A DNA stretch of 34,588 nucleotides from an uncultured Anaerolineales bacterium (GTDB lineage: Bacteria > Chloroflexota > Anaerolineae > UBA1429). The notes beneath the pieces were generated by a model, which searched no databases, was not told the DNA's origin, and saw nothing but the letters and a program-made list of their open reading frames with translations. The first letter of the stretch is position 1, and every line of letters starts with the position of its first letter. The DNA lies in NCBI GenBank assembly GCA_964624695.1, contig CAZUZB010000014.1, positions 1 to 34,588 on the forward strand. Direction: 5' to 3'. Position numbers and translations under genes: made by a program. Of the stretch, positions 11,038-34,155 are shown piece after piece.

Positions 11038-11049
11038 AGGCTAGGGATA

Positions 11050-17081: not shown

Positions 17082-18173
17082 ATGGATACAGCCCGAGAGC
17101 GCTTCATGCGGACTCTGGACTTCATGGTCAGCGACCCTCCGTTCGTACGATTTGGTGCCGAGTACGTGTGGGAGGAAACGATCGAGCTCTGGCGGCAACA
17201 GGGCTACGACGGCCGACCGCTTGAGCAGGTCTTCGGAACCGATACCCTCATCGATCTGGGCGTCAACTACGGTCCGGCACCCGAGTTCTCGCGCCAAGTA
17301 CTGGCCGAGGACGTTCGCACTGTCACATACGTCAATCACGAGGGCATCGTCGTGCGTGAGTTCAAGGGTCACCACATGGCCAGCATGCCCCAGTTCGTCC
17401 GCTTCCCAGTTGAGACGGAAGCGGACTTCGCGCGCTTGGCGGGCGAGCGCTTGGGCCTGAATGTGGAGGAACGCTTCTCTGATGAGTGGAAGGGAAAGCT
17501 TCCCGCCTGGAAAGACTCGGAGCAACCCCGCCGTTGCTGGGCCAACCGCTGGGGCGGCTTTTTCGGCGCTCTCCGAAACCTCATGGGTCTCGAGGGGTTG
17601 TGCGTCGCAATCTATGAGCAGCCCCGGCTCGTCGAGAGGATGATGGCCGAGCGCGCCGAGGCGATCATCACCGTTACCGACGAGGTTCTACGCCACAGCG
17701 ATTTCGAGACCTTCTGGTTCTGGGAAGACATGGCCTACAACCATGGCTCGCTGGTTGATCCTCGCCTTTTCCGTCGGCTGGCTCTCCCTCACTATCGGCG
17801 AGTGTGTGACTGGCTACGCTCTCGTGGGATCCGGCATATCTGGCTCGACAGCGACGGTGACATTCGTGAGCTGATCCCCGTCTGGCTCGAAGGTGGAATC
17901 AACGGCCTATGGCCCTTCGAGGTACAGGCGGGCATGGACGTAGTTCAGGTGCGTCGGGAGTATGGCCACGACCTGGCACTGGCGGGCGGAATCGACAAGC
18001 GCGCGGTTGCCCAAGGGGGAGGGGCGATGCGAAGCGAAGTCGAGCGCGTGATGCCTCTCGTGGCCGATGGCGGCTACCTTCCCGAGCTGGACCATGGGGT
18101 GCCGCCCGATATCTCATGGCCAAACTACCGTGAGTATATGGGGTACCTACTGCAACGCTTGCAGCGTGGCTAG
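17082..18173 (+). CDS. URO-D family protein (paralogue 2)
   Basis: AAGGAGG lies 6 nt upstream. The motifs RERFMRTLDF..., WFWEDMAYNHG, IWLDSDGDIRELIP, GGIDKRA and LDHGVPPDISW are shared with the neighbouring paralogue. Confidence 0.85.
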   Translation: MDTARERFMRTLDFMVSDPPFVRFGAEYVWEETIELWRQQGYDGRPLEQVFGTDTLIDLGVNYGPAPEFSRQVLAEDVRTVTYVNHEGIVVREFKGHHMASMPQFVRFPVETEADFARLAGERLGLNVEERFSDEWKGKLPAWKDSEQPRRCWANRWGGFFGALRNLMGLEGLCVAIYEQPRLVERMMAERAEAIITVTDEVLRHSDFETFWFWEDMAYNHGSLVDPRLFRRLALPHYRRVCDWLRSRGIRHIWLDSDGDIRELIPVWLEGGINGLWPFEVQAGMDVVQVRREYGHDLALAGGIDKRAVAQGGGAMRSEVERVMPLVADGGYLPELDHGVPPDISWPNYREYMGYLLQRLQRG

Positions 18174-18196
18174 GCTCAAGTACGGAGGGAATCCAG

Positions 18197-19318
18197 GTGT
18201 CAGCAATCAACAACCGGGAGCGCTTCCTGCGGATGCTAGACTTTTCCCCTGTTGACCGCGGCTTCAACCACGAGTTGCCCTTGTGGGTGCAGACCTACGA
18301 TCGTTGGCACACCGAGGGCATGCCGGACGACGTCCACATCGGTGATCTGATGGCGGGCTGCGCGTTTTTTGGTGTCGATCGGGTGGGTTATCTGCCGCTG
18401 AGAGTGACGGAGATGATGCCTCCTTTCAGGGTCGAGGTGCTAGAAGAAGACGAGCGCTACCGCGTCATGCGGTTCGCCGACGGGCATATCACGCGTGCAC
18501 TCAAGGAGGGAGAGTCGGGGGGCATGCGCATGTCCATGGACCAGTACCTCTCCTTCCCGGTCGTCGATCGCGATAGCTGGCAGGATGTCCGACGCCGCTA
18601 CAACCCGCGCTCTCCGGCCCGCTACCCCGAGTGGTGGGAGGACCTCAAGCGCTGTCTAGCGGGGCGCGACTATCCCCTTTACTTGACCCGTAATGGTTGT
18701 TTTGGTCTTTATTCCTTTCTAAGACGTTTGATGGGGACAGAGCTTGCCTGCACAATCTTCTATGACGATCAGGCTCTTGCCGATGAAATACTCGACTACC
18801 TGACAGACTATCTCATCGAGCTCATCCACCCCGTGCTAGACCAAGTAGAGGTTGACGTCTTCAACTACTTTGAGGATTTTGCCTACAACGCCGGCCCGCT
18901 GATTGGGCCCACCATCTTCCGCCGGTTTCTGTTTGCCAGATACCGCCGGATCAACGATCTCTTACGTGCCCATGGTGTGCGACACATATTGCTGGACAGT
19001 GATGGGAACTCAAGTGTTCTGCTCCCACTGATGATCGAGGCCGGGATCACTTGTCACTGGCCTCTGGAGCGGACTACGATGGACCCTCTCGCCGTGAGAG
19101 CAGAGTACGGGCATGATCTGGCCCTCATAGGAGGAATCGACAAGCGCGCCCTAGCTCGAGGAAGAAAGGCGATCACAGCGGAGCTATACCGAATCATACC
19201 CCCTCTGATCGAGGATGGTGGTTACATCCCCACCCTCGATCACGCCGTCCCTCCGGACGTATCGTACGACAACTGGATGTACTACATGGAGTTGAAGCTC
19301 AGGTTACTAGGTAGCTAG
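18197..19318 (+). CDS. URO-D family protein (paralogue 3, tandem duplicate of the previous gene)
   Basis: GTG start with GGAGGG 7 nt upstream. Motifs NNRERFLRMLDF, YFEDFAYNAG, ILLDSDGNSSVLLP, GGIDKRA and LDHAVPPDVSY are colinear with 17082..18173. Confidence 0.85.
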   Translation: MSAINNRERFLRMLDFSPVDRGFNHELPLWVQTYDRWHTEGMPDDVHIGDLMAGCAFFGVDRVGYLPLRVTEMMPPFRVEVLEEDERYRVMRFADGHITRALKEGESGGMRMSMDQYLSFPVVDRDSWQDVRRRYNPRSPARYPEWWEDLKRCLAGRDYPLYLTRNGCFGLYSFLRRLMGTELACTIFYDDQALADEILDYLTDYLIELIHPVLDQVEVDVFNYFEDFAYNAGPLIGPTIFRRFLFARYRRINDLLRAHGVRHILLDSDGNSSVLLPLMIEAGITCHWPLERTTMDPLAVRAEYGHDLALIGGIDKRALARGRKAITAELYRIIPPLIEDGGYIPTLDHAVPPDVSYDNWMYYMELKLRLLGS

Positions 19319-23874: not shown

Positions 23875-24612
23875 ATGTCCGCAGTTGATCCGAAGAGCCC
23901 CCTCCCCTACTACCAACAGATTGCAGATGCTCTACGCGCCGAGATCGAAGCGGGCGTGTCTAGGGGCAACGGTTTTCGCCTGGCATCCGAACACGAGCTC
24001 TGTGAGCGCTTTGGCGTCACGCGGACCACGGTTAGGAGCGCCTTGGATGTACTGGAGCGCGAGGGGCGGATCTACCGCCAGGTCGGCCGCGGCACCTTTG
24101 CGGCTGCCAGGCGTCTTGAGCAGAACGTCACCGAACTGGTCTCGACGACCGAGGATATGCGCCGGCGCGGGCGGAGCATCACGACGCGCGTGCTCTCGCT
24201 TGAGCGCATACCAGCCACGGGAAAGGTCTGCGGTGCGCTAGCCCTCGGTGCCGCGCAAGTGGTCTACGAGTTGACGCGTTTGCGGGAGGCGGACGGTGAG
24301 CCGATCAGCCTCCAGACCTGCTACCTCCCCGCGCAGCTCTGTCCGGGCTTGGAGGAGCATGATCTCAGCGTGTCGCTGTACCGCTTGCTGGAGAGCGAGT
24401 ACAACTTCTACCTATGGACGGCACGAGAGACGCTCAGCGCACGGCGAGCCACGAGCGCGGAAGCCGGATTGCTTGGGATGCCCGTACGGGACGCGGTGCT
24501 CTACGCCGAGCGCGTGACCTACACCGCCGACGATACGCCGGTAGAGTACCTCGAGGCCGTGTGGCGCGGCGATCGGTATAGCTTCCAGATCAACCTGTCG
24601 CGACCGCAGTAG
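23875..24612 (+). CDS. GntR-family transcriptional regulator, HutC subfamily (winged HTH + UTRA effector domain)
   Basis: ORF 23740..24612. I prefer the ATG at 23875, because the upstream part runs into the IS end. HTH: PLPYYQQIADALRAEIEAG...LASEHELCERFGVTRTTVRSALDVLEREGRIYRQVGRGTFAA. A UTRA-like C-terminal domain follows (...EYLEAVWRGDRYSFQ). Confidence 0.9.
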   Translation: MSAVDPKSPLPYYQQIADALRAEIEAGVSRGNGFRLASEHELCERFGVTRTTVRSALDVLEREGRIYRQVGRGTFAAARRLEQNVTELVSTTEDMRRRGRSITTRVLSLERIPATGKVCGALALGAAQVVYELTRLREADGEPISLQTCYLPAQLCPGLEEHDLSVSLYRLLESEYNFYLWTARETLSARRATSAEAGLLGMPVRDAVLYAERVTYTADDTPVEYLEAVWRGDRYSFQINLSRPQ

Positions 24613-24628: not shown

Positions 24629-24841
24629 ATGGGTGTCATCGAAGGGTTCGTCGACTATCAGCGCCGCGAGTACTGCAAGGATATCGTCTGCCCGATCCAG
24701 CTGCTGCTAGAAGAGGCGGAAGCCGGATCGCCCGCCTACGATTATATTCGGTCCATCTGTCAGACCGCGTGCATCCATTCGACGTATGAGTTTCACCACT
24801 GGCTGATCGACAAGGGCTACCTGGTGGTAAGGCCGGCCTGA
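24629..24841 (+). CDS. Small conserved-looking Cys4 protein (70 aa), function unknown
   Basis: AAAGGAG lies 7 nt before the ATG, which is 16 nt after the gntR stop. Cys pattern: C-x4-C...C-x3-C (YCKDIVCP ... ICQTACIH), plus His50/56/57. The composition is protein-like, but I do not recognise a family. Confidence 0.55.
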   Translation: MGVIEGFVDYQRREYCKDIVCPIQLLLEEAEAGSPAYDYIRSICQTACIHSTYEFHHWLIDKGYLVVRPA

Positions 24842-24913
24842 CCTGAGACCGCAGCGAGCGCGCCCAGAAGAGCAAGAGCCGCCGCCAACCTGGACGGGGC
24901 AAGGAGCAAGCGG

Positions 24914-25990
24914 ATGCTAACCGCGACGCATCACCTGTTGCTGGCCGAGCAGCGTCAGGCCGTATCCGAGGCCGTGGGCCTGCCGGTACTGCTGACCGCG
25001 TACCCCGGCCTGATCCGCCACGACGCCCTGTTGGAGGCCATCGGCCCCGCGGCCGGGCGAACCTGCGGCGCGGTCTGGGTGGAAGGGGCCGGAGTCTGCG
25101 CCTTTGGGCGATCGGCGGCCGAGCTACAGATGGTTGCGACGACCTATAGGGCGACAGCGGTCCGCGGCGAAGGCGCCGACCAACTGAGACGGCGCCTTGA
25201 TAGAGTCGCTGAGGGAGCGGGGGCAGGTGAGCTCTTTGCCGGCGAGGTGGTCCTGATCACCGGCGCGGCATCGGGCATCGGCAGGGCCTGCGTCGATGCC
25301 TTTCTCGAGCGCGGGGCGGCGGTCGTGGGCCTGGACATCAACCCGGCCATCGTCGATCTCTCTGAAGCACCGGCATACTTGGGTCTGGCATGTGACGCCG
25401 CCGACGAGGCGGCGGTAGTGGACGCGCTAGGCCAGGTAGTGCAGACGTTTGGCGGGCTGGATATGCTGGTGCTGAACGCCGGCGTGTTCCCGGCAGGTTG
25501 TGACATCGCCGCATTGGAGCTGGCCGAGTGGCGTCGTGTCATGCGCATCAACCTGGATGCCGGGCTGATCATGCTGCGCCACGCGCATCCCCTGCTCAAG
25601 CTCGCGCCCCGGGGCGGTCGGGTGGCGGTGAACGGCTCGCGCAACGTCCTGGCGCCGGGGCCGGGGGCGGCGGCCTACTCCTGCTCCAAGGCGGCCCTGA
25701 CGCAACTGGCGCGTGTCGCGGCCCTGGAGTGGGGGACGGACGGCATTCGCGTGAACGTCTTTCACGCGCACGGCGTCTTTGACACGGGCATCTGGACCGA
25801 CGAGGTGCTGGCGGCTCGCGCGCGTCACTATGGGAAGACGGTGGAGGAGTACAAGCGTAACAACCTTCTCAAGACGGAAGTGACCAGTCGCGACGTGGCC
25901 GAGCTGGCCGCGGCGATGTGCGGGCCGCTGTTCGCCAAGACGACCGGCGCCCAGGTCCCCATCGACGGCGGCAGCGACCGCGTGGTGTAG
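24914..25990 (+). CDS. Short-chain dehydrogenase/reductase with ~105-aa N-terminal extension resembling the tail of a class II aldolase/adducin domain (truncated YuxG/RhaD-dehydrogenase type)
   Basis: AAGGAG lies 7 nt upstream. The SDR motifs are present: VVLITGAASGIGRA, LVLNAG, YSCSKAAL. The N-terminal segment ...GAVWVEGAGVCAFGRSAAELQMVATTY resembles the ...HG..TWG...E.. end of class II aldolase domains. The Zn-binding part of that domain is absent. Confidence 0.85.
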   Translation: MLTATHHLLLAEQRQAVSEAVGLPVLLTAYPGLIRHDALLEAIGPAAGRTCGAVWVEGAGVCAFGRSAAELQMVATTYRATAVRGEGADQLRRRLDRVAEGAGAGELFAGEVVLITGAASGIGRACVDAFLERGAAVVGLDINPAIVDLSEAPAYLGLACDAADEAAVVDALGQVVQTFGGLDMLVLNAGVFPAGCDIAALELAEWRRVMRINLDAGLIMLRHAHPLLKLAPRGGRVAVNGSRNVLAPGPGAAAYSCSKAALTQLARVAALEWGTDGIRVNVFHAHGVFDTGIWTDEVLAARARHYGKTVEEYKRNNLLKTEVTSRDVAELAAAMCGPLFAKTTGAQVPIDGGSDRVV

Positions 25991-26043
25991 CAGAGGGCCA
26001 GGGCGGGCGCGCACCGCCTGCCAACTGGCGTAGGAGGATCATC

Positions 26044-27027
26044 ATGCCGAGTGAGCTGCGCTTTTCCGCCAATATCAACACCTTTAACGCCTGTGCCGAC
26101 CGCTACGTCCTATCGGGCTATGGCGAGCGGCTGTCCACAGAGCAGCTGATCGAGGCTGCCACCAAGGTGGAGGGCCTATCCGGCGTGGAGGTCGTGGGAT
26201 TTTGGCACGTGAACGACGACAACGTCGTCCAGGTGAACCGACAGATCCGCGACGCCGGGCTGGAGGTGACCTGCGTGACGCCGGACATCTGGGCCTCGGC
26301 CAAGTGGGGTCGGGGCTCCTTTGCCTCCAACGACCCCAAGATCCGCCGGGCGGCCATTGACGAGGTAAAGCGCTCCATGGAGTGGGCGCAGCAGATGGAT
26401 TGCCAGGTGGTCGACCTCTGGTTCGGCCAGGACGGCTACGACTATCCTATGCAGGCCGACTATCTCTCGGCCTGGGATCGCCTGATCGAAGGGACCATCG
26501 AGTGCGCCGAGCATCTGCCCGGCGTCAACCTGGTGATCGAATACAAGCCCAAGGAGCCGCGCACCCACTGCTTTATTGGTACCGTGGGCAAGACACTGCT
26601 GCTCCTGGAAAAGGTGAACAAGCCCAACGTCGGCGCCATGATCGACGTAGGACACGCGCTGATGGCCTACGAGGTCACGGCCGAATCGGCCTCGCTGCTG
26701 CACTATTTCGGCAACAAGCTGTTCTACATGCACTTTAACGACAACTGGCGCCTTTGGGACGACGACATGACGGCTGGCTCGATCCACACCATCGAGCTGT
26801 TGGAACTGCTCTACTGGCTGGACCGGCTGGGCTACGATGGCTGGTACGCCCTGGACATCTTTCCCTACCGTGAGGACGGCATCGTGGCCGCCACCGAGAG
26901 CATCCGCTGGATCCAGGCCTTGCACGGCCTGCTGGACAAGATCGGCCGACCGCGCATCGCGGCGCTGATCGCTGAGAGTGACGCCATGGGGGCCTCGCGG
27001 GCCATCCGCGAGGCGCTCCTGGGATAA
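26044..27027 (+). CDS. Xylose-isomerase-like TIM-barrel sugar isomerase/epimerase (metal-dependent aldose-ketose isomerase type)
   Basis: ORF 25918..27027. The ATG at 26044 is preceded by AGGAGG. Motifs: LVIEYKPKEPRTH (compare EPKPKEP of xylose isomerase), IDVGHALMA, YMHFNDN. Confidence 0.88.
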   Translation: MPSELRFSANINTFNACADRYVLSGYGERLSTEQLIEAATKVEGLSGVEVVGFWHVNDDNVVQVNRQIRDAGLEVTCVTPDIWASAKWGRGSFASNDPKIRRAAIDEVKRSMEWAQQMDCQVVDLWFGQDGYDYPMQADYLSAWDRLIEGTIECAEHLPGVNLVIEYKPKEPRTHCFIGTVGKTLLLLEKVNKPNVGAMIDVGHALMAYEVTAESASLLHYFGNKLFYMHFNDNWRLWDDDMTAGSIHTIELLELLYWLDRLGYDGWYALDIFPYREDGIVAATESIRWIQALHGLLDKIGRPRIAALIAESDAMGASRAIREALLG

Positions 27028-27065
27028 TACGGACGTCGAGACGAACACACAGAAAGGAACTACAC

Positions 27066-28415
27066 GTGACCAAGCAACTCTATGATCCCAACATGTTCAA
27101 CTATATGTGGGAGAGCCTGGACCAGGATCGCTTTGTCGTCGGCACTTATTATGTGGAGGACATCAAAGAGGGCGTCGACTTCATCGACCATCTGGCGCAG
27201 ATCCAGCGCCTGGCCCTGGAGGGCTCGACCGCCAGCTGGATGGAGATCAAGGAGGAGACGCCAGAGGTGCGGGAGCGGCTCTCCAGCAAGATTCTGAACT
27301 ATCTGGAGATCCCGGCCGACAAGGGGACCAAGAAGGCGATCGTGCAGATGGCGTTCCCCATCGCCGCCTGGGAGGAGAACGTCAACGTTCCCATGTTGCT
27401 GCTTTCCATCATGGGAAACATCCCCGCCTTTCCAACCAACATGCGCATGCTGGACCTCTACGTTCCCCCCAGCGTGGCGGCCAAGTTCCAGGGACCAAAG
27501 TACGGCATCGAGGGCCTCCGCGCCAAGCTAGGCGTCCATGGCCGGCCACTGACGCTGCAGATCATCAAGCCCAAGATGGGCATGACGCCGGAGGAGACGG
27601 CAGCGCAGGTGTACCAGAGCGCCTTGGGCGGGGTGGACCTGGTCAAGGACGACGAGATGTGCAGCGAGCTTTCCAACTGCTCGTTCGAGGCGCGCTTGGA
27701 GGCGGTGCTCGAGGCGCTGGAAAAAGCCGAGCGCGAAACTGGCCAGAAGACGCTGTACATGGTGAGCATCACCGATGAGGTGGATCGGGTGGCGGACAAG
27801 TGTCGGCGGGCCGTCGAGCTGGGGGCCACGGGGCTGCTGTTTGCCTACTCGGCCGGCCTCTCGGCGCTCAAAGTGATCGCCGACGATCCCGCCATCGACG
27901 CGCCGATCCTGCTGCATGTCTCGCATATGCTGGCACTGCTGCCGCGCATGAACTTCCCCGTGCTCTCCAAGCTCTGCCGCCTGTGTGGCGCCGACATGAT
28001 GCTGACCCCCTCCATGTGGTCCAGCATCCCGGTGGCCTCGGTGGAAGAGTCCTTGCGGGTGACCCAGACACTGGTGGCGCCGTTCTACCATATCAAGAAG
28101 ACCTGGCCCATGCCCGCCGCGGGCATGTATCCCGGTTTGATCGACGTGCTGATCCAGGAACACGGCGTCGACTTTATCGTGCCCGCGGGCGGCGGCATGC
28201 TGGGCCATCCCATGGGCTACAAAGCCGGTGCCATGGCCTGGCGGCAGGCCATCGACGCGGTGCTGGCCGGCAAGACGCTACAGGAGGCAGCAGCCGAATA
28301 CCCCGAGTTCCGGGCGGCCGCCGAGCTGTGGGGCATCCGCGAGCGTCCCAAGACGGTGTGGGGCTACTCGGGGCCGGACTATCATCCGGGCTTTGCGCCG
28401 AAGAATCTGACTTAG
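27066..28415 (+). CDS. RuBisCO large-subunit-like protein (form IV RLP), not a carboxylase
   Basis: GTG start. The sequence is colinear with RbcL: ALEGSTASW (compare AAESSTGTW), MGNIPAF (Asn123), GRPLTLQIIKPKMGMT (Lys175/177), GGVDLVKDDEM (Lys201, Asp203, Glu204), PAGGGMLGHPMG (Gly403/404). The CO2-fixation residues are replaced: LHVSHMLA for HIHRAMHA, CGADMMLTPS for GGDHIHSGT, no Lys334, PAAGMY for ASGGIH. Confidence 0.9.
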   Translation: MTKQLYDPNMFNYMWESLDQDRFVVGTYYVEDIKEGVDFIDHLAQIQRLALEGSTASWMEIKEETPEVRERLSSKILNYLEIPADKGTKKAIVQMAFPIAAWEENVNVPMLLLSIMGNIPAFPTNMRMLDLYVPPSVAAKFQGPKYGIEGLRAKLGVHGRPLTLQIIKPKMGMTPEETAAQVYQSALGGVDLVKDDEMCSELSNCSFEARLEAVLEALEKAERETGQKTLYMVSITDEVDRVADKCRRAVELGATGLLFAYSAGLSALKVIADDPAIDAPILLHVSHMLALLPRMNFPVLSKLCRLCGADMMLTPSMWSSIPVASVEESLRVTQTLVAPFYHIKKTWPMPAAGMYPGLIDVLIQEHGVDFIVPAGGGMLGHPMGYKAGAMAWRQAIDAVLAGKTLQEAAAEYPEFRAAAELWGIRERPKTVWGYSGPDYHPGFAPKNLT

Positions 28416-28435
28416 CCATCTAGTTTCGATGTCGT

Positions 28436-28468
28436 GCCCAGCAGGTTGCTCGGACCAACCTGCTGGGC
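28436..28468 (+). terminator. Intercistronic stem-loop between the RLP and E1-alpha genes (no U-tract; attenuator or processing/stability element)
   Basis: CCCAGCAGGTTG (28437-28448) pairs perfectly with CAACCTGCTGGG (28456-28467), with a 7-nt loop and one flanking G-C pair. It lies 21 nt after the RLP stop and 45 nt before the E1-alpha start. Confidence 0.5.
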
Positions 28469-28512
28469 GTCCGTAATGCCGATCGCCGTCCCACCGGAGG
28501 GAGAGAAGGCCC

Positions 28513-29484
28513 ATGCCACAGAGCAACCCGCCGTTGCTAGAGCTGTACCGCACCATGCTGACCATCCGGCGCTTTGAGGAGCGCTGCAACCATCTGTTCA
28601 TGCAGGGGCGGATCCCGTCCACGCTGCACCTGTACATCGGCCAGGAGGCCGTGGCCACAGGCGTGTGCGCGCACCTGAAAGATACGGATTATGTGTTGAG
28701 CACGCATCGCCCCCACGGACACGCTATCGCCAAGGGGGTGACGCCACGCAGCATCATGGCCGAGCTGTTCGCCAAGGCCACCGGTTGCTGCAAAGGCAAG
28801 GGCGGCTCTATGCATGTCGGCGACATGCGCGTGGGGATGCCGCCGGCCATCGCTATTGTGGGCGGCAACGCGCCCATCGCCTGCGGCATGGCCCTGGCCC
28901 AGAAGCGTTTGGGCAACGGCGGCGTGACGGTGTCCTCTTTCGGCGACGGGGCGGCCAACGAGGGCGCGGTGCACGAGGCCCTGAACATGGCCGCCATCTG
29001 GGATCTGCCGGCGATCTTTGTCTGCGAGAACAATCTCTACGCGGCCTCGACGGCCTTTGCCACGGCCTTCAAGATCGACGATGTGGCCGCCAGAGCCGCC
29101 GCCTACGGGATGCCCGGCATCGTCGTGGATGGCAACGACGTGTTGGCAGTCCACGAAGCGGCCGCCGCGGCCATCGCGCGCGCGCGGGAGGGCGGCGGGC
29201 CGACGCTGATGGAGTGCAAGACCTATCGCCTGTGCGGCCACTCGCGGAGCGACCCCCTGACCTATCGAACCAAAGAGGAGGAGGCGCGCTGGCTGGAGCG
29301 GGAGCCCATCGGGCGGCTGGCGGCGCAGATGCGCGAGCAGGACCTGGTCACAGAGGAGCGCCTGCGAAAGATCGAGGAGGTGGTGGTCGCCGTCATCGAC
29401 GACGCGGTGGCCTATGCCGAGGCCAGCCCGGATCCCCTGCCCAGCGACGCGCTGCAGCACGTGTTCTACGGACAGGAGGCGTGA
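28513..29484 (+). CDS. TPP-dependent 2-oxoacid/acetoin dehydrogenase E1 component, alpha subunit
   Basis: GGAGGGAG lies upstream. TPP motif: FGDGAANEGAVHEALNMAAIWDLPAIFVCENNLYA. Also YRLCGHSRSDP and LYIGQEA. Confidence 0.92.
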   Translation: MPQSNPPLLELYRTMLTIRRFEERCNHLFMQGRIPSTLHLYIGQEAVATGVCAHLKDTDYVLSTHRPHGHAIAKGVTPRSIMAELFAKATGCCKGKGGSMHVGDMRVGMPPAIAIVGGNAPIACGMALAQKRLGNGGVTVSSFGDGAANEGAVHEALNMAAIWDLPAIFVCENNLYAASTAFATAFKIDDVAARAAAYGMPGIVVDGNDVLAVHEAAAAAIARAREGGGPTLMECKTYRLCGHSRSDPLTYRTKEEEARWLEREPIGRLAAQMREQDLVTEERLRKIEEVVVAVIDDAVAYAEASPDPLPSDALQHVFYGQEA

Positions 29485-29486
29485 GC

Positions 29487-30500
29487 ATGGCCAAGATGAG
29501 CATCGCCGAGGCGCTGCGGCAGGCCATTCGCGAGGAGATGGTCCGCGATCCGCGCGTCTTCTGTGTGGGCGAGGATATCGGCGTGGAGGGCGGCTTTGGC
29601 GGGGCCTTTACCGTGACCCTGGGACTATCAGAAGAGTTCGGCCACGAGCGCATCCTGGACACACCCATCTCCGAGATCGGCATCGCCGGCGTGGCCATCG
29701 GGGCGGCCATGGCCGGCCTGCGGCCCATCGCCGACGTGCAGTATGGCGATTTTCTGTTCTGCATGATGGATCAACTGGTGAACCAGGCAGCCAAGATGAC
29801 CTACATGTCGGGCGGGACGGTGAGCGTCCCCATGGTCATGCGGGCGCCGGTGGGCTCGACCCGACGCGGCGCCCAGCACGCCCAGAGCCTGGAGGCCTTT
29901 TTCACCCACGTGCCCGGCCTGAAGGTGGTAGCCCCGGCCACCGCCTACGATGCCAAAGGCCTGCTGAAGAGCGCCGTGCGCGATGACAACCCGGTCCTGG
30001 TGTTTGAGCACAAGCTGCTGTACGGCTCCAAGGGGCCGCGTTCGGAGGCCGGAGCGCTGAGCCCGGTGGGCGAGGTGCCGGACGAGGAGTACCTGGTGCC
30101 CATCGGCAAGGGCATCGTCCGGCGCGAGGGCAGCGACGTGACCATCGTCGGCAAGCTCTTGACGCTGTACCGCGCGTTGGGCGCGGCGGAAAAGCTGGCG
30201 GCCGAGGGCATCAGCGCCGAGGTGATCGACCCGCGCACCCTGGTGCCGCTGGACAGGGAGCTGATCTTGGAGTCGGTGCGCAAGACCGGCCGGCTGGTGA
30301 TCGTCGAGGAGGACAACCTGACCGGCGGGTGGGCCGCCGACATCGCCGCCATCGTGGCGGAGGAGGCTTTCTTCTACCTGGACGCCCCGATCGTGCGCGT
30401 CTCGGCGCCGGACACGCCCGCGCCCTTTGCGCCGGTGATGGAGGCCTTTTACGTACCTTCGGAGGAGCGGGTGATCGAGGCCGTCCGGTCGACGCTGTAG
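29487..30500 (+). CDS. 2-oxoacid/acetoin dehydrogenase E1 component, beta subunit
   Basis: The ATG is 2 nt after the alpha stop, suggesting translational coupling. The upstream 274 codons of ORF 28665..30500 are an out-of-frame artefact. Motifs: VFCVGEDIG..GGAF, DTPISE, VQYGDF, PVLVFEHKLLY. Confidence 0.92.
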   Translation: MAKMSIAEALRQAIREEMVRDPRVFCVGEDIGVEGGFGGAFTVTLGLSEEFGHERILDTPISEIGIAGVAIGAAMAGLRPIADVQYGDFLFCMMDQLVNQAAKMTYMSGGTVSVPMVMRAPVGSTRRGAQHAQSLEAFFTHVPGLKVVAPATAYDAKGLLKSAVRDDNPVLVFEHKLLYGSKGPRSEAGALSPVGEVPDEEYLVPIGKGIVRREGSDVTIVGKLLTLYRALGAAEKLAAEGISAEVIDPRTLVPLDRELILESVRKTGRLVIVEEDNLTGGWAADIAAIVAEEAFFYLDAPIVRVSAPDTPAPFAPVMEAFYVPSEERVIEAVRSTL

Positions 30501-30552
30501 CGAGGGAAGAAAGGCATTGCCGTGAGTGCAATCTGTGGCGGTGGGGGTTAGC

Positions 30553-31713
30553 ATGGCTCATCCGGTACTGGTGCCGCCTTTGGGGCAGACGGTGGACACC
30601 GTGACCATCGTGACCTGGTACAAGCGAGAGGGCGAGGCGGTCCGTGAGGGCGAGCCGCTCTACGCCATCGAGACCGACAAGGCCGTTCTGGACATCGAGG
30701 CCCAAGCGTCTGGCGTGCTGCGGGGCGTGACCGCCACCGAGGGCGACGAGGTGGAGGTGTTGCGCGCCATCGCAGAGATCGCCACCGCGGCAGAGGGCGG
30801 GACGGTCGGAACGACGGCTGAGGCGGCCGACGGCGCCCCCGAAGTCGCCCCATCGGAGAGTAGTGTTGCGGCGAGGGCGGTCACGCCGGTGCGCCGTGGT
30901 CCGCGTCAGTTCGTCTCGCCGCGCGCTCGCCGCCTGGCGGAGGCCGAGGGCGTTTCGCTGGAGGAGGTGGCGGGCAGCGGCCCAGAGGGCGCCGTCGTCG
31001 AGCGCGATGTGCGCGCATGGCTGGAGCGGCGCTCCAGCGCCCAGGAGACGCCGCCTCGCGAGCTCGCGGCGCCCGCGGCGGCGGTCAGCGAGGTCGTTGT
31101 CGCGCAGATGGGTGCTAAGCTCGCCGGCGCGCCGTTGGTCACCTTGGACGTCGAGGCCGATGCCAGCGCCTTGACGGGCCTGCGGGCCCAGTTGGCGGCC
31201 GCCGAGGTGGAGATAGCCGACACCGATCTCTGGCTGTGCGTGCTGGGGCGGGCTCTGCGCGACCAGCCGGCGCTGAACGCCTCATTGGAGGGGGACGTGC
31301 TGCGTCGTTGGCCACGGGTTCAGGTTGGCCTGGTAGTGGATACCGGCGACGGCCTGGCCGTGCCCGTGGTGCGCGACGTGGATCAGAAGCGGCTGGCGCA
31401 GCTAGCGCGGGAGACCAGGGAGCTGCGGGCGCGAGCGCACGAAGGCGCGCTCACGGCGGAGGATCTGAAAGGCGCGACCTTTACCCTGGCGGACCTGGGG
31501 GCTGCGGGCATCGACACCTTCACCCCGTTCCTGGACGCGCCCACCACAGCGATGATGGGGGTGGGGCGGATCCGAAAGGGCGGGGGAGCCGCGGATGCCA
31601 CGGTGTGGCTCTCGCTCAGCTACGACCGACGCCTGGTCGATGCTGGACGGGCCTCGCGCTTCTTGCGGCAGGTGGCACAGCTCATCGAGCAGCCCTACCG
31701 TCTGCTGGCGTGA
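30553..31713 (+). CDS. Dihydrolipoamide acyltransferase (E2)-like protein with lipoyl and subunit-binding domains but substituted catalytic residues
   Basis: Lipoyl domain with LYAIETDKAVLDIEA. PSBD: FVSPRARRLAEAEGVSLEEVAGSGPEGAVVERDV. The catalytic-domain fold is recognisable, but GGTFT(I/L)SN reads GATFTLAD (Ala codon 31489-31491) and DHRxxDG reads DRRLVDA (Arg codon 31627-31629). The alternative GTG start at 30526 is less likely than the ATG at 30553. Confidence 0.88.
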   Translation: MAHPVLVPPLGQTVDTVTIVTWYKREGEAVREGEPLYAIETDKAVLDIEAQASGVLRGVTATEGDEVEVLRAIAEIATAAEGGTVGTTAEAADGAPEVAPSESSVAARAVTPVRRGPRQFVSPRARRLAEAEGVSLEEVAGSGPEGAVVERDVRAWLERRSSAQETPPRELAAPAAAVSEVVVAQMGAKLAGAPLVTLDVEADASALTGLRAQLAAAEVEIADTDLWLCVLGRALRDQPALNASLEGDVLRRWPRVQVGLVVDTGDGLAVPVVRDVDQKRLAQLARETRELRARAHEGALTAEDLKGATFTLADLGAAGIDTFTPFLDAPTTAMMGVGRIRKGGGAADATVWLSLSYDRRLVDAGRASRFLRQVAQLIEQPYRLLA

Positions 31714-31738
31714 GGCGAGCGCGAAAGGGGGGCTAGCG

Positions 31739-33232
31739 ATGCCGAAGACCATCTCTTGTCTGGCGATGGACATCGGCGCGGAGAGCGGCCGCGCCATGGT
31801 GGGAAGGTTCGACGGGGAGTGGCTGACCCTGTCGGAGGCGTATCGCTTCGCCAACGGCTCGGTGCGCCTGCCGGACGGGCTGCACTGGGACCTGTTGCGG
31901 ATCTGGGCCGAGGTGCAGCACAGCCTGGCGCTGGTGGCCCATGAAGCGGGCGAAGCTCTCCGGAGCGTCGGCATCGACACCTGGGGCGTGGACTATGGCC
32001 TGCTGGATCGCACCGGCGCACTGATCGCCAACCCGTTCCATTACCGCGATGGTCGGACCGATGGCATGCTGGACGAGGCCGCCCGGCACATGTCGCACGC
32101 CGAGCTGTACCAGCGCACGGGCATGCCTCCATCCCAGCTCAACACCCTCTACCAGCTGCTATCCATGGTGGTGGGGCGGGACCCCGTCCTGGAGATCGCC
32201 GAGACCTTTTTGATGACGCCGGACTTGCTGCATTACTGGCTGACCGGCGTCAAGGGCTGCGAGTTCACCATCGCGACGTCGACGCAGTTGTACAGCCCCA
32301 GCCTCGACGGCTGGGACCCGGCCATCCTGGAGGCCATGGGCATTCCGGCGCGCCTCTTCCCGGCGCTGGTCCGGCCGGGAACGCGCTTGGGCGGCCTGCT
32401 GCCCTACGTCGCGCAGGGGTTGGACCTAGAGGGGCAGGCGCTCTCGGTCATCGCGCCGGCCTGCCATGACACCGCCTCGGCGGTGGCGGCGGTTCCCATG
32501 CGCGGCCCGGGCTGCGCCTGGATCAGCTCGGGCACCTGGTCCGTCGTGGGGACCGAGCTGGAGGCCCCCATCATCGATGCCGCGACGCAGGCCTACCACC
32601 TGGCCAACGAGGGGGGCGCGAGCGACACCTTCTTCCTCTGTCAAAACGTGATGGGCCTGTGGCTGGTGCAGCAATGCCGCCAGGCCTGGGCCGGTCAGGG
32701 CCAGGAGATGTCCTACACTCAACTGACGCAGCTTGCTCGCGAGGCCAAGCCGTTCCAGGCGGTCATCGATCCAGATGATGGCGCATTCTTCAAGCCGGGC
32801 GACATGCCCGCGCGGATCCAGGCCTATTGTCGGCGAACCGGCCAGACAGTCCTCGAGACGCCGGGGGGCATCATCCGCTGCGTGCTGGAGAGTCTGGCCC
32901 TCAAGTACCGCTGGGCGCTGGAGCGGCTGGACGAGGTGGTGGGGGGACGGCTGGAGCCGGTGCACCTGGTGGGCGGCGGGACGCAGAACACCCCGCTCAA
33001 CCAGCTGACGGCGGACGCAACCGGACGGCTGGTGCTGGCCGGTCCCATCGAGGCCACGGCCCTGGGCAACGTGCTGATGCAGCTCTTGGCGTTGGGGGAG
33101 ATCGGATCGCTGCAGGAGGGGCGCGAGCTCCTGCACCGCTCCTTTGCCCTGGAGGAGTACCTGCCCCGAGGCGGGGCCGAGGAGGCGTGGGAGCGCGGAT
33201 ACGCGCGGCTGTGCGAGCTTGTGTCGAGTTGA
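31739..33232 (+). CDS. FGGY-family carbohydrate kinase, rhamnulokinase (RhaB)-like
   Basis: The ATG at 31739 is preceded by AAGGGGGG; the upstream part of ORF 31595.. overlaps the E2 gene. Motifs: LAMDIGAESGRAMVG, IDTWGVDYGLLD, FHYRDGRT, QLNTLYQL, LMTPDLLHYWLTG, VHLVGGGTQN. Confidence 0.9.
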   Translation: MPKTISCLAMDIGAESGRAMVGRFDGEWLTLSEAYRFANGSVRLPDGLHWDLLRIWAEVQHSLALVAHEAGEALRSVGIDTWGVDYGLLDRTGALIANPFHYRDGRTDGMLDEAARHMSHAELYQRTGMPPSQLNTLYQLLSMVVGRDPVLEIAETFLMTPDLLHYWLTGVKGCEFTIATSTQLYSPSLDGWDPAILEAMGIPARLFPALVRPGTRLGGLLPYVAQGLDLEGQALSVIAPACHDTASAVAAVPMRGPGCAWISSGTWSVVGTELEAPIIDAATQAYHLANEGGASDTFFLCQNVMGLWLVQQCRQAWAGQGQEMSYTQLTQLAREAKPFQAVIDPDDGAFFKPGDMPARIQAYCRRTGQTVLETPGGIIRCVLESLALKYRWALERLDEVVGGRLEPVHLVGGGTQNTPLNQLTADATGRLVLAGPIEATALGNVLMQLLALGEIGSLQEGRELLHRSFALEEYLPRGGAEEAWERGYARLCELVSS

Positions 33233-33285
33233 GCACGCCTGTGAGGGAACGAATCGGTTACTATCAGAGAAGGGAGAGCGACGAG

Positions 33286-34092
33286 ATGGACTGGGGCAAG
33301 AAGAATCGTCTATCGCAGCTGCTGCCCGGTGGGCACGCCTACTACCTGCCCATCGACCACGGGTACTTTTTGGGGCCGACCCGCAAGTTGGAGAAGCCAG
33401 GCGAGACCATCGCGCCGCTATTGCTCTACTGCGACGCGCTGTTCGTGACCCGCGGGGTGCTGCGCGCTTGTGTCGAGCCGGTGGGCAGCCTGCCTATCAT
33501 CCTCAGGATCTCGGGCGGTACCAGTATCGTGGGGCCCGACCTGGCCCATGAGGCGCTGACCACGTCCATCGAGGACATCATCCGCGTCAACGCCGCGGCG
33601 GTGGGGGTCTCGGTGTTCATCGGCAGCGAGTATGAGCGCGAAACGCTGCTGAACCTGACGGACGCGGTCAACCAGTGCCAGGACTATGGGATTCCGGTGA
33701 TGGCGGTGACGGCAGTGGGCAAGGAGCTCGAGAAACGTGACGCTCGGTACTTGGCCCTGTGCTGCCGTATCTGCGCCGAGCTGGGCGCCGACGTGGTCAA
33801 AACCTACTGGTCAGAGGATTTCGAGAAGGTGGTCGAGGGCTGCCCGGTGCCAGTGGTGATGGCAGGCGGCCCCAAGTGCGAAACCAACCGCGAGGCATTC
33901 GAGTTCGTCTACGACGGGATGCAGCGAGGGGCGGCGGGCATCAACTTGGGGCGTAACGTCTGGCAGAACCAGAATCCGGTGCCCATGGCCAAGGCGCTGC
34001 GGGCCATCGTCCATGAGGGCGCGGACGTGGACGCGGCGGTCGCGATCTTTGACGACGCCATGCGTGGCGCGGCCAAGGCGCAGGGGCTGTAA
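33286..34092 (+). CDS. Class I (DhnA/LsrF-family) aldolase; closest in my memory to LsrF, 3-hydroxy-2,4-pentadione-5-phosphate thiolase
   Basis: The ATG at 33286 is preceded by AAGGGAG. The first 153 codons of ORF 32827..34092 overlap the kinase gene out of frame. The sequence is colinear with E. coli LsrF as I recall it: DWGKKNRLSQL, IDHGYFLGPT, IAPLL..CDALFVTRGVLR, SIVGP, VSVFIGSEYE, IPVMAVTAVGK, GADVVKTYW (Schiff-base Lys), GCPVPVVMAGGPK, GINLGRNVWQ. Confidence 0.88.
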   Translation: MDWGKKNRLSQLLPGGHAYYLPIDHGYFLGPTRKLEKPGETIAPLLLYCDALFVTRGVLRACVEPVGSLPIILRISGGTSIVGPDLAHEALTTSIEDIIRVNAAAVGVSVFIGSEYERETLLNLTDAVNQCQDYGIPVMAVTAVGKELEKRDARYLALCCRICAELGADVVKTYWSEDFEKVVEGCPVPVVMAGGPKCETNREAFEFVYDGMQRGAAGINLGRNVWQNQNPVPMAKALRAIVHEGADVDAAVAIFDDAMRGAAKAQGL

Positions 34093-34118: not shown

Positions 34119-34155
34119 CTCCCTCCGGGGGCAGTGTGCCTGCTCCTGGAGGGAG
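34119..34155 (+). terminator. Strong hairpin 27 nt after the last operon gene; probable transcription terminator (weak U-tract)
   Basis: CTCCCTCCGGGGGCAG (34119-34134) pairs with CTGCTCCTGGAGGGAG (34140-34155). The stem is 16 bp including two G-U pairs, with the 5-nt loop TGTGC. Confidence 0.5.

Follow-up and report, generated by a model that had tools for sequence, protein, structure and literature searches.

What does a RuBisCO-like protein (RLP) do in an operon that also encodes a sugar isomerase, a kinase and a TPP-dependent E1/E2 system? The question is raised by a stretch of 34,588 nucleotides from an uncultured Anaerolineales bacterium (hereafter the window), in which nine co-directional genes (24629-34092; all features given here are on the + strand) lie 3' of a gene for a GntR/HutC-family regulator (23875..24612) with a GntR helix-turn-helix domain and a UTRA effector domain (52 and 142 bits with Pfam). 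An earlier sequence-only reading had described this run, with short gaps and a Shine-Dalgarno motif for each gene. After revision of two start codons, among them that of the regulator, all genes are found at the coordinates listed here, a purine-rich Shine-Dalgarno-like motif precedes every start, and the intergenic gaps range from 2 to 97 nt (from the regulator onwards, 16, 72, 53, 38, 97, 2, 52, 25 and 53 nt). That the run closes at a 16-bp hairpin also holds: 27 nt past the last stop codon, a 16-nt inverted repeat (34119..34155; 88% complementary) forms a fold more stable than all of 200 shuffled sequences (z = -4.3). A consensus intrinsic-terminator scan did not call it, since no T-run follows the repeat. 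Another stem-loop (28436..28468), in which a 16-nt inverted repeat (94% complementary) folds into 13 pairs, occupies the 97-nt gap between the RLP and E1 alpha genes, which folds at -43.3 kcal/mol (z = -3.3). It is possible that this is a processing, attenuation or stability element. Further upstream, a module identified with Pfam (9661..19318) encodes a CUT1 sugar ABC transporter, a CN-hydrolase, a DUF6259 protein and two URO-D-like proteins. Between this module and the operon lie an amidohydrolase-like ORF and IS remnants; the two are probably linked, and homologues of the DUF6259 or URO-D-like proteins occur near the RLP cluster in seven other loci.

Does the association recur? An RLP relative is encoded in 208 genome loci, 80 of which were examined, and the RLP/E1 cluster occurs in dozens of bacteria, mostly uncultured, among the Anaerolineae and several other phyla. 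Of the 80 loci, 59 have E1, and in 44 of 55 the E1 alpha gene begins 4-323 nt past the RLP stop codon. Among 29 well-flanked related loci (at least 5 kb on each side of the RLP gene), the isomerase is found in 25, GntR in 23, E1 in 21, E2 in 16 and the kinase, within 10 kb, in only 13. In most related loci the GntR gene comes ahead of those for the isomerase and the RLP. The linkage of RLP and E1 is kept, although the genes are ordered differently, in four loci from Aerophobetes, Clostridia, Actinomycetota and MAGs of unclassified bacteria. Such co-occurrence is far above chance. What is conserved is a unit of GntR, isomerase, RLP, E1 alpha and E1 beta, often with E2 and the kinase; because this core persists in phyla that differ in its gene order, a functional coupling of the RLP with the TPP enzyme follows from their neighbourhoods. 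Recurrence is borne out for the RLP, both E1 subunits, the XylA/RhaI-like isomerase and the RhaB-like kinase, but not for the nine genes as one unit, the small-protein, LsrF-like and SDR genes being present in 5 of the 80 loci.

The RLP itself (27066..28415; Pfam RuBisCO_large and RuBisCO_large_N) is a form-IV protein that scores under every NCBIfam cut-off, including those of the MtnW, form III and OiaX models (138 bits for OiaX, against a cut-off of 700); the closest solved RLP structure is MtnW (234 bits). On these scores it falls outside the characterised RLP families compared (MtnW, form III, OiaX). Its place in the RLP tree is in an uncharacterised clade. We mapped the active site in spinach numbering over 63 aligned family members. 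E60, W66, N123, K175, P176, K177, K201, D203, E204, G381, G403 and G404 are invariant and H294 is kept too, while R295, H298, H327 and K334 are lost. The alignment indicates that the RuBisCO residues for Mg2+, the carbamate lysine, the C1 (P1) phosphate, the C2 carbonyl and C3 hydroxyl, and abstraction of the C3 proton are all retained, and that the second phosphate site, the loop-6 (carboxylation) lysine and the MtnW catalytic lysine are gone: where the general base Lys98 of MtnW sits, at the N123 position, all 63 members have Asn. Like the model scores, this absence of the MtnW lysine sets the RLP apart from the characterised families compared.

How is the carbon chain broken? Neither Pfam and NCBIfam searches nor alignment to a full-length fusion revealed a class II aldolase in the window. 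The SDR (24914..25990) matches the 'bifunctional aldolase/SDR' model NF006196 with 420 bits, but over profile positions 402-657 only, and aligns to residues 342-656 of a 656-aa full-length homologue from another of the loci; it corresponds to the C-terminal half of that family, and the aldolase is missing, as had been noticed. Another enzyme must therefore break the C-C bond. In the explanation that we favour, and to which as a whole we give a little less than an even chance, the operon serves to catabolise a free monosaccharide, possibly a deoxy sugar, with the RLP at its centre. The xylose-isomerase-like TIM-barrel protein (26044..27027; Pfam AP_endonuc_2), a probable aldose-ketose isomerase that is 73-85% identical over most Anaerolineae-type loci, would convert the aldose to a 2-ketose, and the rhamnulokinase-like FGGY kinase (31739..33232; 441 bits with TIGR02627, whose cut-off is 528, and only 50 bits with the LsrK model), a probable ketose C1 kinase, would yield the ketose 1-phosphate. 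The RLP would then enolise this compound at C3 and shift the carbonyl towards the unphosphorylated tail, leaving an alpha-hydroxyketone beside that tail, which is probably deoxy or methyl. E1, with its TPP, would split this acyloin into a triose phosphate and acyl-TPP, and lipoyl-E2 would hand the acyl group on to CoA; a 5-deoxypentose would give acetyl-CoA and a 6-deoxyhexose lactyl-CoA. This order of events (ketose 1-phosphate, carbonyl shift, TPP cleavage) had been put forward in the sequence-only reading, and it fits both the conserved core and the active-site pattern of the RLP.

A bona fide RhaA gene adjoins the RLP-E1-E2 genes in two loci (L031 and L086), and an Fe-ADH is found in another; these hint at deoxy-sugar or aldehyde chemistry.

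The E1/E2 genes bear on this explanation and on its strongest rival. E1 alpha (28513..29484; Pfam E1_dh, 300 bits), of the heterotetrameric PDH/acetoin/BCKDH type, scores 368 bits with TIGR03182, just under the cut-off of 394, and its closest structure is human PDH E1 alpha (230 bits). E1 beta (29487..30500; Pfam Transket_pyr and Transketolase_C) passes the PDH E1 beta model NF006667 (370 bits, cut-off 321) and belongs to the most strongly conserved part of the cluster, with 60-93% identity between loci. The system thus looks PDH-like; it had been called acetoin-dehydrogenase-type, a label for which we found no specific evidence, and an acyloin-specific E1 is a candidate assignment for subunits that resemble PDH, a 2-oxoacid enzyme. 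The window's E2 (30553..31713) has lipoyl, E3-binding and catalytic domains by Pfam, but its catalytic motif is degenerate, DRRLVDA (codons GAC CGA CGC for the first three residues) against DHRxxDG, so that the catalytic histidine is lost. It is a divergent outlier among its homologues, most of which are classical lipoyl/PSBD/catalytic proteins with DHRxxDG. Six close relatives have E1 and no adjacent E2. The acyl-CoA step may for these reasons depend on a different E2, or the reaction of E1 may be non-oxidative. Profile searches with Pfam and NCBIfam found no E3 or lipoate-ligase gene in the window's cluster. Some loci carry extra E1/E2 sets beside the RLP-linked one.

Could E1/E2 be a genuine 2-oxoacid or diketone dehydrogenase, fed by an RLP that makes or helps to make a 2-oxoacid or 1,2-diketone through enediol dehydration/beta-elimination, hydrolysis or decarboxylation? 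The PDH-like E1 subunits and the mostly classical E2 homologues would suit such a role. So would the neighbours of sister RLP clades, among them phosphatases (HAD and ComB-like), an MtnB-like class II aldolase-fold protein, a 2-hydroxyacid dehydrogenase and E1/E2. The phosphatases, the class II aldolase-like gene and the aminotransferases that accompany these sister clades also speak against the carbonyl shift, in that RLPs of this branch may well catalyse different reactions. The RLPs of D-apionate catabolism decarboxylate or hydrolyse beta-keto acids, as Carter reportedly described in 2018; the RLP result of that paper is cited in PMC6302742. However, the conserved core has no oxidoreductase to bring a sugar to the acid level, the loop-6 Lys334 is kept by the sister clades and absent from this family, and the OiaX score is far from its threshold. 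We consider this alternative unlikely, about half as probable as the carbonyl shift.

The remaining genes form a small-protein/LsrF/dehydrogenase cassette. The 70-aa small protein (24629..24841) has 192 homologues at 60-80% identity, in which no Pfam domain was found. Their alignment has invariant Cys16, Cys21, Cys44, Cys48, His50, His56 and His57, a Cys4/His set that is probably a metal site; the AF2 model (pLDDT 82) has four short helices and gave no fold match in the PDB. In other phyla this gene also adjoins LsrF-like and dehydrogenase genes. The LsrF-like protein (33286..34092), a DhnA-family class I aldolase/thiolase, passes the LsrF model NF006081 (333.5 bits, cut-off 297), matches E. 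coli LsrF with 237 bits and, judged by eye from the alignment, roughly 50% identity, and keeps the Lys of VVKTYW at the position that we take to be the Schiff-base lysine of LsrF. It had been proposed that the SDR oxidises the ketose phosphate and that the resulting diketone phosphate is tautomerised by the RLP, in the manner of MtnW or LsrG, and cleaved thiolytically by the LsrF-like enzyme. The LsrF match, the closeness of MtnW among solved RLPs and the position of the cassette, embedded within the operon where present, favour this. Yet the cassette is a rare add-on, found in only 2 of the 29 well-flanked loci, all of which have the RLP; it also occurs with a Zn-ADH and without RLP in Aminicenantes and elsewhere, and this cannot therefore be the general function of the RLP. 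The replacement of Lys98 counts against it too, and it gives no role to the universally linked E1; we hold it to be improbable. The point of insertion of the cassette varies between five loci, and five of six LsrF-cassette clusters carry E1 as well, so a strictly 'alternative' role is unsupported. Under the carbonyl-shift explanation, the cassette could be an accessory NAD+/CoA-dependent branch that would oxidise the hydroxyl beta to the ketone, giving a 3-hydroxy-2,4-dione phosphate, the LsrF substrate type, and split it to DHAP and an acyl-CoA.

Does the operon serve a further variant of the catabolism of a branched sugar, D-apiose or another, in which an ApsI-like isomerase gives apulose, a kinase phosphorylates it, and the RLP and a TPP enzyme, E1 taking the place of the AptAB transketolase, complete the cleavage? 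The isomerase, described earlier as XI-like, does match XylA and RhaI weakly (89 and 74 bits), but among structures it is closest to 3ktc (209 bits), and it would be a paralogue of the 3ktc/putative D-apiose isomerase (ApsI) family, its nearest relatives. In Rhizobium, a cluster of TIM barrel, split transketolase, FGGY kinase and TpiA has a TIM-barrel gene that 3ktc matches with 420 bits; this cluster corresponds to the published apsI/aptAB/aplK apiose pathway (PMC13001218). RLPs are already placed in apiose catabolism (PMC6302742). In L086 a split transketolase adjoins the isomerase, and three further loci have one too. However, the apiose-type cluster has a GlpK-like kinase to which the RhaB-like one is unrelated (38 bits), the OiaX score is low, and no similarity links the binding proteins to the Rhizobium locus. 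Moreover, apulose 1-phosphate should have no C3 proton, whereas the RLP keeps the full apparatus for abstracting one. We therefore put little weight on this variant. Least plausible of all is that E1/E2 is a housekeeping pyruvate dehydrogenase merely adjoining the RLP with no common pathway: its PDH-like E1 sequences and the lack of E3 and lipoate-ligase genes agree with this, but the adjacency outlasts changes of gene order between phyla, some loci have further E1/E2 sets alongside, and such an enzyme could not tolerate what is seen in the window's lineage, an intact E1 with an E2 that is degenerate or absent.

Full-text searches of the literature covered found no description of an RLP in this E1/isomerase/kinase context, in line with the claim that its pairing with a TPP-dependent E1/E2 is unlike known contexts; this, together with the recurrence of the pairing, makes it probable that the cluster represents a sugar-degrading route not yet described. 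The carbonyl shift that we propose has a parallel in Rhodospirillum rubrum, whose RLP moves the carbonyl of 5-methylthioribulose 1-phosphate and is, to our knowledge, the one RLP known for such a carbonyl walk; the likeness drawn here is one of reaction.

Ten genes running in the same direction on the forward strand span the region 23875-34155 of the window. They encode, in order, a GntR/HutC regulator with GntR and UTRA domains (23875-24612), a 70-amino-acid protein that matches no family (24629-24841), a short-chain dehydrogenase (SDR; adh_short, 24914-25990), a xylose-isomerase-like TIM barrel (AP_endonuc_2, 26044-27027), a form-IV RuBisCO-like protein (RLP; RuBisCO_large and RuBisCO_large_N, 27066-28415), E1alpha (E1_dh, 28513-29484), E1beta (Transket_pyr and Transketolase_C, 29487-30500), E2 (Biotin_lipoyl, E3_binding and catalytic 2-oxoacid_dh domains, 30553-31713), an FGGY kinase (FGGY_N and FGGY_C, 31739-33232) and an LsrF-like protein of the DeoC/LacD family that passes the NCBIfam LsrF model (33286-34092). 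The genes are separated by 16, 72, 53, 38, 97, 2, 52, 25 and 53 nucleotides, and a purine-rich, Shine-Dalgarno-like motif precedes every start codon. The gene content, order and coordinates proposed in the sequence-only reading were accurate, and two start codons alone had to be corrected. The 16-bp hairpin that it placed at the end of the run is also present: a 16-nucleotide inverted repeat at 34119-34155, 27 nucleotides past the last stop, folds with z = -4.3 relative to shuffled sequence. This repeat has no run of U residues after it, and the consensus scan for intrinsic terminators, which returned none, did not flag it. The promoter consensus scan gave a single promoter-like site upstream of the GntR gene, no more than expected by chance, and an Rfam scan of the entire window at gathering thresholds gave nothing. 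A further stem-loop occupies the 97-nucleotide gap between the RLP and E1alpha genes (28436-28468, with 13 pairs in the fold, from a 16-nucleotide inverted repeat; z = -3.3 for the gap) and may divide the operon into two expression units.

How much of this arrangement recurs elsewhere? A pattern scan for relatives of the RLP, restricted to one genome per GTDB species, returned 208 loci, 80 of which were retrieved and probed by tblastn with the ten window proteins. The conserved unit comprises the GntR regulator, the isomerase, the RLP and both E1 subunits, with E2 and the FGGY kinase often coming next. Among the 29 loci in which the RLP gene is flanked by 5 kb or more on each side, the isomerase was found in 25, GntR in 23, E1 in 21, E2 in 16 and the kinase in 13. 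E1alpha starts 4 to 323 nucleotides past the RLP stop codon in 44 of 55 loci. Most loci come from metagenome-assembled genomes of Anaerolineae or other Chloroflexota; the RLP and E1 genes are also linked, in other gene orders, in Aerophobetes (locus L065), Clostridia (L074), Actinomycetota (L078) and an unclassified bacterium (L076), and a Bathyarchaeia locus (L072) has a partial E1 about 9 kb from the RLP gene on the opposite strand. That this linkage survives rearrangement argues for a shared function. In Anaerolineae-type loci, tblastn identities are mostly 75-93% for E1beta, about 73-85% for the isomerase and 58-88% for the RLP, so that E1beta and the isomerase are conserved at least as well as the RLP itself.

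Unlike the core, the genes for the small protein, the LsrF-like enzyme and the SDR are found as a set in just five further loci (L013, L027, L028, L032 and L047), and their insertion point within the operon differs among the carriers. The association of RLP, E1/E2, LsrF and FGGY kinase whose recurrence had been suggested for checking holds for the core with E1, often with E2 and kinase, but only rarely extends to the LsrF cassette. The idea that LsrF and SDR simply replace E1/E2 was weakened, E1 being present in five of the six cassette-bearing clusters. The window's nine genes form one operon, made of an evolutionarily conserved core and a mobile accessory cassette. A full-text literature search, in which coverage of subscription journals was thin so that an earlier publication is possible, returned no description of a cluster combining an RLP with a TPP-dependent E1.

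Upstream of the operon, the block at 9661-19318 encodes a CUT1 ABC transporter, a CN-hydrolase, a 748-residue DUF6259 protein and two URO-D-like proteins. Seven other loci have DUF6259 or URO-D homologues in the neighbourhood of the RLP cluster, and in one of them (L034) these stand directly upstream of GntR; the block may form a single catabolic island with the RLP operon. Between these sugar genes and the GntR operon lie an amidohydrolase-like ORF (19557-21047), frameshifted fragments of an ISAs1-like transposase (21778-22344, reverse strand) and an rve-integrase gene (22440-23714, reverse strand). At the other end of the upstream region, a B12-binding corrinoid protein (358-1299) adjoins a URO-D-like protein (1292-2458), both on the reverse strand, and two further URO-D-like genes are located at 17082-19318. 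Set amid sugar-uptake genes, the corrinoid protein and URO-D-like genes look like a corrinoid-dependent methyltransferase or O-demethylase system.

The RLP exceeds the Pfam gathering scores for both RuBisCO large-chain domains (147.8 bits for PF00016, 48.3 bits for PF02788) and falls below the cut-off of every NCBIfam model compared: 286.5 bits against the MtnW model NF007095 (cut-off 409), 242 bits against the MtnW model TIGR03332 (513.6), 232 bits against the form III RuBisCO model (497) and 138 bits against the OiaX model NF042437 (700). Its closest solved structure is Geobacillus kaustophilus MtnW (234 bits), followed by form III RuBisCOs and the Chlorobium RLP at about 188-195 bits. When 1.84 billion cluster representatives were searched exhaustively with HMMER, only two 50%-identity clusters proved close, at 64% and 50% identity, and the one after them stood at 43%; the nearest clusters have been named by automatic annotation at most. 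In a rough neighbor-joining tree of 50%-identity representatives, the family sits within a large unnamed radiation of RLPs, apart from the MtnW clade; with spinach RbcL and a G. kaustophilus MtnW fragment as its only anchors, this tree speaks only to the separation from the MtnW clade.

We numbered the active site on the spinach RbcL sequence, in which all 22 canonical residues fell at their expected positions. Twelve positions are invariant in 63 family members (E60, W66, N123, K175, P176, K177, K201, D203, E204, G381, G403 and G404); H294 is kept and T65 is Ser or Thr, while R295, H298, H327 and K334 are replaced. In the window RLP, K194, D196 and E197 are the equivalents of K201, D203 and E204, and the substitutions include R295 to V, H327 to L and K334 to S. 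The roles of these positions are well established from RuBisCO structure-function work. Read in this way, the RLP appears to retain its metal site, the carbamate that serves as base for abstraction of the C3 proton, the ligands of the C2 and C3 oxygens and the C1-phosphate cradle, and to be without the distal phosphate site and the lysine of loop 6 on which carboxylation depends. This pattern leads us to expect a substrate whose tail bears no phosphate, a 2-keto-3-hydroxy 1-phosphate, and enolisation as the first step.

The position of N123 is Asn118 in the window protein and Asn in 63 of 63 relatives, whereas MtnW-clade representatives have a Lys there, the general base of MtnW (Lys98 in G. 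kaustophilus). JGI annotation gives this RLP and dozens of its homologues the name '2,3-diketo-5-methylthiopentyl-1-phosphate enolase'. Since the catalytic lysine of MtnW is absent and the model cut-offs are missed, this name is a propagated mis-annotation.

Other RLPs turned up alongside the family. Two sister clades at 42-43% identity (represented by loci L084 and L085) retain Lys334; both RLPs are accompanied by a ComB-like phosphatase, a HAD phosphatase, an aminotransferase and an FGGY kinase, to which L084 adds a 2-hydroxyacid dehydrogenase and L085 a class II aldolase-fold protein, an aldehyde:ferredoxin oxidoreductase and E1/E2. These sets may represent an anaerobic variant resembling methionine salvage. 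Locus L046 holds, besides an FGGY-isomerase-GntR group and a family RLP, a second and very divergent RLP of 470 residues whose best NCBIfam match is OiaX at 73 bits, adjoining a DhnA/ADH-synthase-like aldolase and a GH127 beta-L-arabinofuranosidase (2084-6364, reverse strand). A cupin-like ORF just after the RLP gene in L067, L070 and L072 gave only weak matches to ureidoglycolate lyase; having no significant PDB match, it is a doubtful candidate for a methylsulfurylase of the Rhodospirillum rubrum type and was set aside.

The E1 and E2 proteins of the window display the full architecture of a 2-oxoacid or acetoin dehydrogenase, with E1alpha, E1beta and a three-domain E2. E1alpha is closest to human PDH E1alpha (230 bits) and E1beta scores 370 bits against NF006667, above its cut-off of 321. 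No Aco-specific model or structure appeared among the E1 matches, which PDH E1alpha tops, and the AcoC model NF011457 covers only the lipoyl end of E2 (72.8 bits, cut-off 307). The E2 of the window is a divergent outlier, with at most 55% identity to the others, which share 66-81% among themselves. The catalytic motif DHRxxDG, kept in 28 of 30 homologous E2s, reads DRRLVDA in the window, with His replaced by Arg and Gly by Ala (residues 356-365, about nucleotides 31618-31647); the codons are GAC CGA CGC, so that the loss of His is not a single-base error. The closest relative, the E2 of L003, is likewise degenerate, and in six close relatives (L007, L008, L009, L043, L062 and L079) E1beta is followed by the kinase with no E2, a short unassigned ORF standing between them in L079. 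A degenerate or missing E2 in this lineage points to a cis-encoded acyltransferase that is decaying while E1 is maintained. As the lipoyl and E3-binding domains of the window E2 look intact, it may be either a decaying acyltransferase or a lipoyl carrier only.

We consider it very probable that these clusters encode a conserved, undescribed pathway in which an RLP and a TPP enzyme act together on a ketose phosphate. Because the core has neither an aldolase nor an oxidoreductase, the TPP enzyme must cut the carbon chain at the oxidation level of a sugar phosphate. Judging by family similarity, the isomerase would convert an aldose to a 2-ketose and the RhaB-like kinase would phosphorylate it to a ketose 1-phosphate. 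The RLP would then enolise this compound and relocate its carbonyl; the R. rubrum RLP reaction is, to our knowledge, the only RLP reaction on a ketose 1-phosphate without a second phosphate. E1, with TPP, would cleave the resulting acyloin to a triose phosphate and an acyl group, the latter being handed to CoA by a lipoyl-E2, whether that of the operon or one encoded elsewhere. A 5-deoxypentulose 1-phosphate would in this manner become 1-deoxypentulose 5-phosphate and yield acetyl-CoA and glyceraldehyde 3-phosphate; a 6-deoxyhexulose 1-phosphate would yield lactyl-CoA and glyceraldehyde 3-phosphate. The specific chemistry of this scheme is put forward tentatively, its chances being below even. 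An undescribed route, widespread in Anaerolineae, in which the RLP walks the carbonyl along a (deoxy)ketose 1-phosphate and a PDH-type TPP/lipoyl E1(E2) cleaves the acyloin directly to triose phosphate and acyl-CoA, is a possible reading, though less likely than not.

Several neighbouring genes bear on the identity of the sugar. Loci L086 and L031 both encode a bona fide L-rhamnose isomerase, RhaA (692 bits), which adjoins the RLP-E1-E2 genes in the former (2713-3990) and follows the kinase in the latter (at about 6312). In L086, a split transketolase and a second E1alpha/beta set follow right after the xylose-isomerase-like gene (11747-15502), which concentrates several TPP enzymes in one sugar locus. 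Ribose/rhamnose-type ABC transporters are found beside several related loci, ADP-ribosylglycohydrolase genes in L028, L032, L055 and L056, and an Fe-alcohol dehydrogenase with a class III aminotransferase in L011. A deoxy or furanose-only sugar is a plausible candidate substrate; these hints do not fix the sugar.

Could E1 instead act as a true dehydrogenase, on a 2-oxoacid or diketone produced by the RLP? The complete E1/E2 architecture and the leading match to PDH E1alpha are what such an enzyme would display. Against it, the core has no oxidoreductase that could bring a sugar to the acid level, and we judge this reading unlikely.

Another scheme, proposed from the sequence alone, gives the central role to the cassette: the SDR oxidises the ketose phosphate, the RLP tautomerises the diketone phosphate and the LsrF-like enzyme cleaves it. 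The LsrF-like protein scores 333.5 bits against NF006081, above the cut-off of 297, and 237 bits against Escherichia coli LsrF, with about 50% identity judged by eye from the alignment; the lysine of IIKTYY in E. coli LsrF, which we take to be its Schiff-base Lys, is aligned to that of VVKTYW in the window protein. The window SDR corresponds to residues 342-656 of a 656-residue aldolase-II/SDR fusion, intact in L013 and L047, and scores 140 bits against the RhaEW model TIGR02632 (cut-off 568), of which the SDR half alone is covered. The window copy is without the aldolase-fold domain, in line with the class II aldolase having been noted as missing. The 70-residue protein belongs to a strongly conserved family of 192 proteins with seven invariant residues (Cys16, Cys21, Cys44, Cys48, His50, His56 and His57); it has no NCBIfam match, its homologues carry no Pfam domain and Foldseek gave no match with E < 1. 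The family is widespread in several phyla (homologues include L081 4020-4244, L087 10001-10210 and L086 10001-10210), and after its gene there usually come an LsrF-like member of the DeoC family and a dehydrogenase, either an SDR or a Zn-dependent alcohol dehydrogenase. Aminicenantes and another lineage have it in a cluster with an LsrF-like gene and the gene of a Zn-dependent alcohol dehydrogenase, in a neighbourhood that lacks an RLP; L086 has it flanked by GntR and the isomerase, and there no LsrF-like gene goes with it. These three genes are an uncharacterised cassette independent of the RLP, and with so few RLP loci carrying it, the cassette-centred scheme is improbable. In the preferred reading, where the RLP product is cleaved by E1, the SDR/LsrF cassette would be an extra branch: the hydroxyl beta to the ketone, on the ketose 1-phosphate or the RLP product, would be oxidised to a 3-hydroxy-2,4-dione phosphate. 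With five carbons this compound would be exactly the LsrF substrate, and its cleavage would give DHAP and acetyl-CoA.

A variant of the apiose type has similarly little chance of being right. The isomerase, weakly similar to actinobacterial XylA and to Gram-positive RhaI (74 bits against TIGR02635, cut-off 531), scores 209 bits against PDB 3ktc, a Pectobacterium 'xylose isomerase', and 3ktc in turn scores 420 bits against the TIM-barrel gene of a Rhizobium plasmid cluster that also encodes a split transketolase, a GlpK-like FGGY kinase and TpiA. The published apsI/aptAB/aplK route for D-apiose has the same arrangement (PMC13001218, which cites Carter 2018). These matches, together with the published route, make the window isomerase a paralogue of a probable apiose isomerase family. 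The kinase of the window, however, is unrelated to the Rhizobium-type (apulose-type) GlpK-like kinase (38 bits), the binding proteins of related loci have no similarity to those of the Rhizobium apiose-type locus, and no transketolase is encoded in the window; split transketolase genes are present in L023, L051, L068 and L086, adjoining the isomerase gene in the last. That a housekeeping PDH adjoins the RLP by mere coincidence is very improbable given the persistence of the linkage across divergent gene orders, its PDH-like E1alpha being the point in its favour.

If true, the proposed route would take the place of the class II aldolase step in rhamnose, fucose and 5-deoxyribose breakdown and retain the energy of cleavage in a thioester; RLPs would gain a new reaction context, and E1 enzymes a new class of physiological substrate. 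We know of few established RLP functions: the MtnW enolase, the R. rubrum isomerase and two enzymes of apionate pathways. The present clade is common, with 208 species-level genome matches and hundreds of metagenomic proteins. Solving its function would provide a new reaction for the RuBisCO superfamily, reveal how abundant, mostly uncultured Anaerolineae fermenters process a sugar, possibly by an aldolase-free, thioester-conserving cleavage, and mend the widespread 'DK-MTP-1-P enolase' annotation error. With RuBisCO-like first-shell residues kept (N123, K175, K177, E60 and W66), the clade is also informative on the origin of the carboxylase from enolase or isomerase ancestors.

By the membership tests run, the window system falls outside the MtnW, OiaX, Lsr and Rha systems and probably outside the apiose systems. 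MtnW/YkrW, the 2,3-diketo-5-methylthiopentyl-1-phosphate enolase (PDB 2oek and 2zvi), shares the KDDE motif and K175 with the window RLP, which differs in having Asn for the catalytic Lys98 and in keeping K177, lost in MtnW; no MtnB, MtnX or MtnD gene is present in the window. The Lsr pathway for AI-2 (LsrK, LsrG and LsrF) has counterparts in the FGGY kinase and in the LsrF-like protein. However, the kinase scores 49.9 bits against the LsrK model (cut-off 528), LsrG, LsrR and LsrACDB are all absent from the window, and at other sites the partners of the LsrF-like gene are a small Cys4 protein and a dehydrogenase. The L-rhamnose pathway of Gram-positive bacteria and Chloroflexi, which Rodionova is said to have described in 2013, reportedly consists of RhaI, RhaB and a bifunctional RhaEW aldolase/dehydrogenase. 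The resemblance to this module seen in the sequence-only reading stands for the kinase (441 bits against the rhamnulokinase model TIGR02627, cut-off 528) and the SDR, which are clearly paralogous to RhaB and to the dehydrogenase half of RhaEW, but is weak for the isomerase; all three are below the equivalog cut-offs, and the RLP and E1 take the aldolase's place.

Two systems come closer. For D-apiose, Carter et al. are said to have reported in 2018 an ApsI/AplK/AptAB transketolase route along with apionate routes that contain RLPs. The former shares the logic of an isomerase, a kinase and then TPP-dependent cleavage of a carbon-carbon bond, and in D-apiose catabolism, too, RLPs take part in sugar breakdown. 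The kinase, though, is RhaB-like in the window and GlpK-like in the apiose type, and the TPP enzyme is an E1alpha/beta with a lipoyl-E2 instead of a split transketolase. As to the apionate routes, the RLP is not OiaX-like, at 138 bits for a cut-off of 700, and neither the window nor the related loci have DUF1537 kinase and oxidoisomerase neighbours. The R. rubrum RLP (IV-DeepYkr) is reported by Imker in 2008 and Erb in 2012 to be a 5-methylthio-D-ribulose-1-phosphate 1,3-isomerase of the MTA-isoprenoid shunt; it is said to act by RuBisCO-type enolisation on a ketose 1-phosphate without a second phosphate and to give a 1-substituted ketulose 5-phosphate. In its residue pattern the window RLP fits this precedent, with enolisation and P1-phosphate residues kept and the P2 site lost. 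The contexts differ: a cupin methylsulfurylase, of which the window has none, and MTA salvage genes in R. rubrum, against an isomerase, an FGGY kinase and a TPP-dependent E1/E2 here; and while the R. rubrum product feeds isoprenoid synthesis, that of the window RLP would be cleaved. By analogy, the window system would work most like the R. rubrum MTA-isoprenoid shunt and the D-apiose transketolase pathway. It is of a known kind, that of RLP-containing pathways for sugars or SAM by-products; what is new is the RLP clade and its unprecedented E1 partner.
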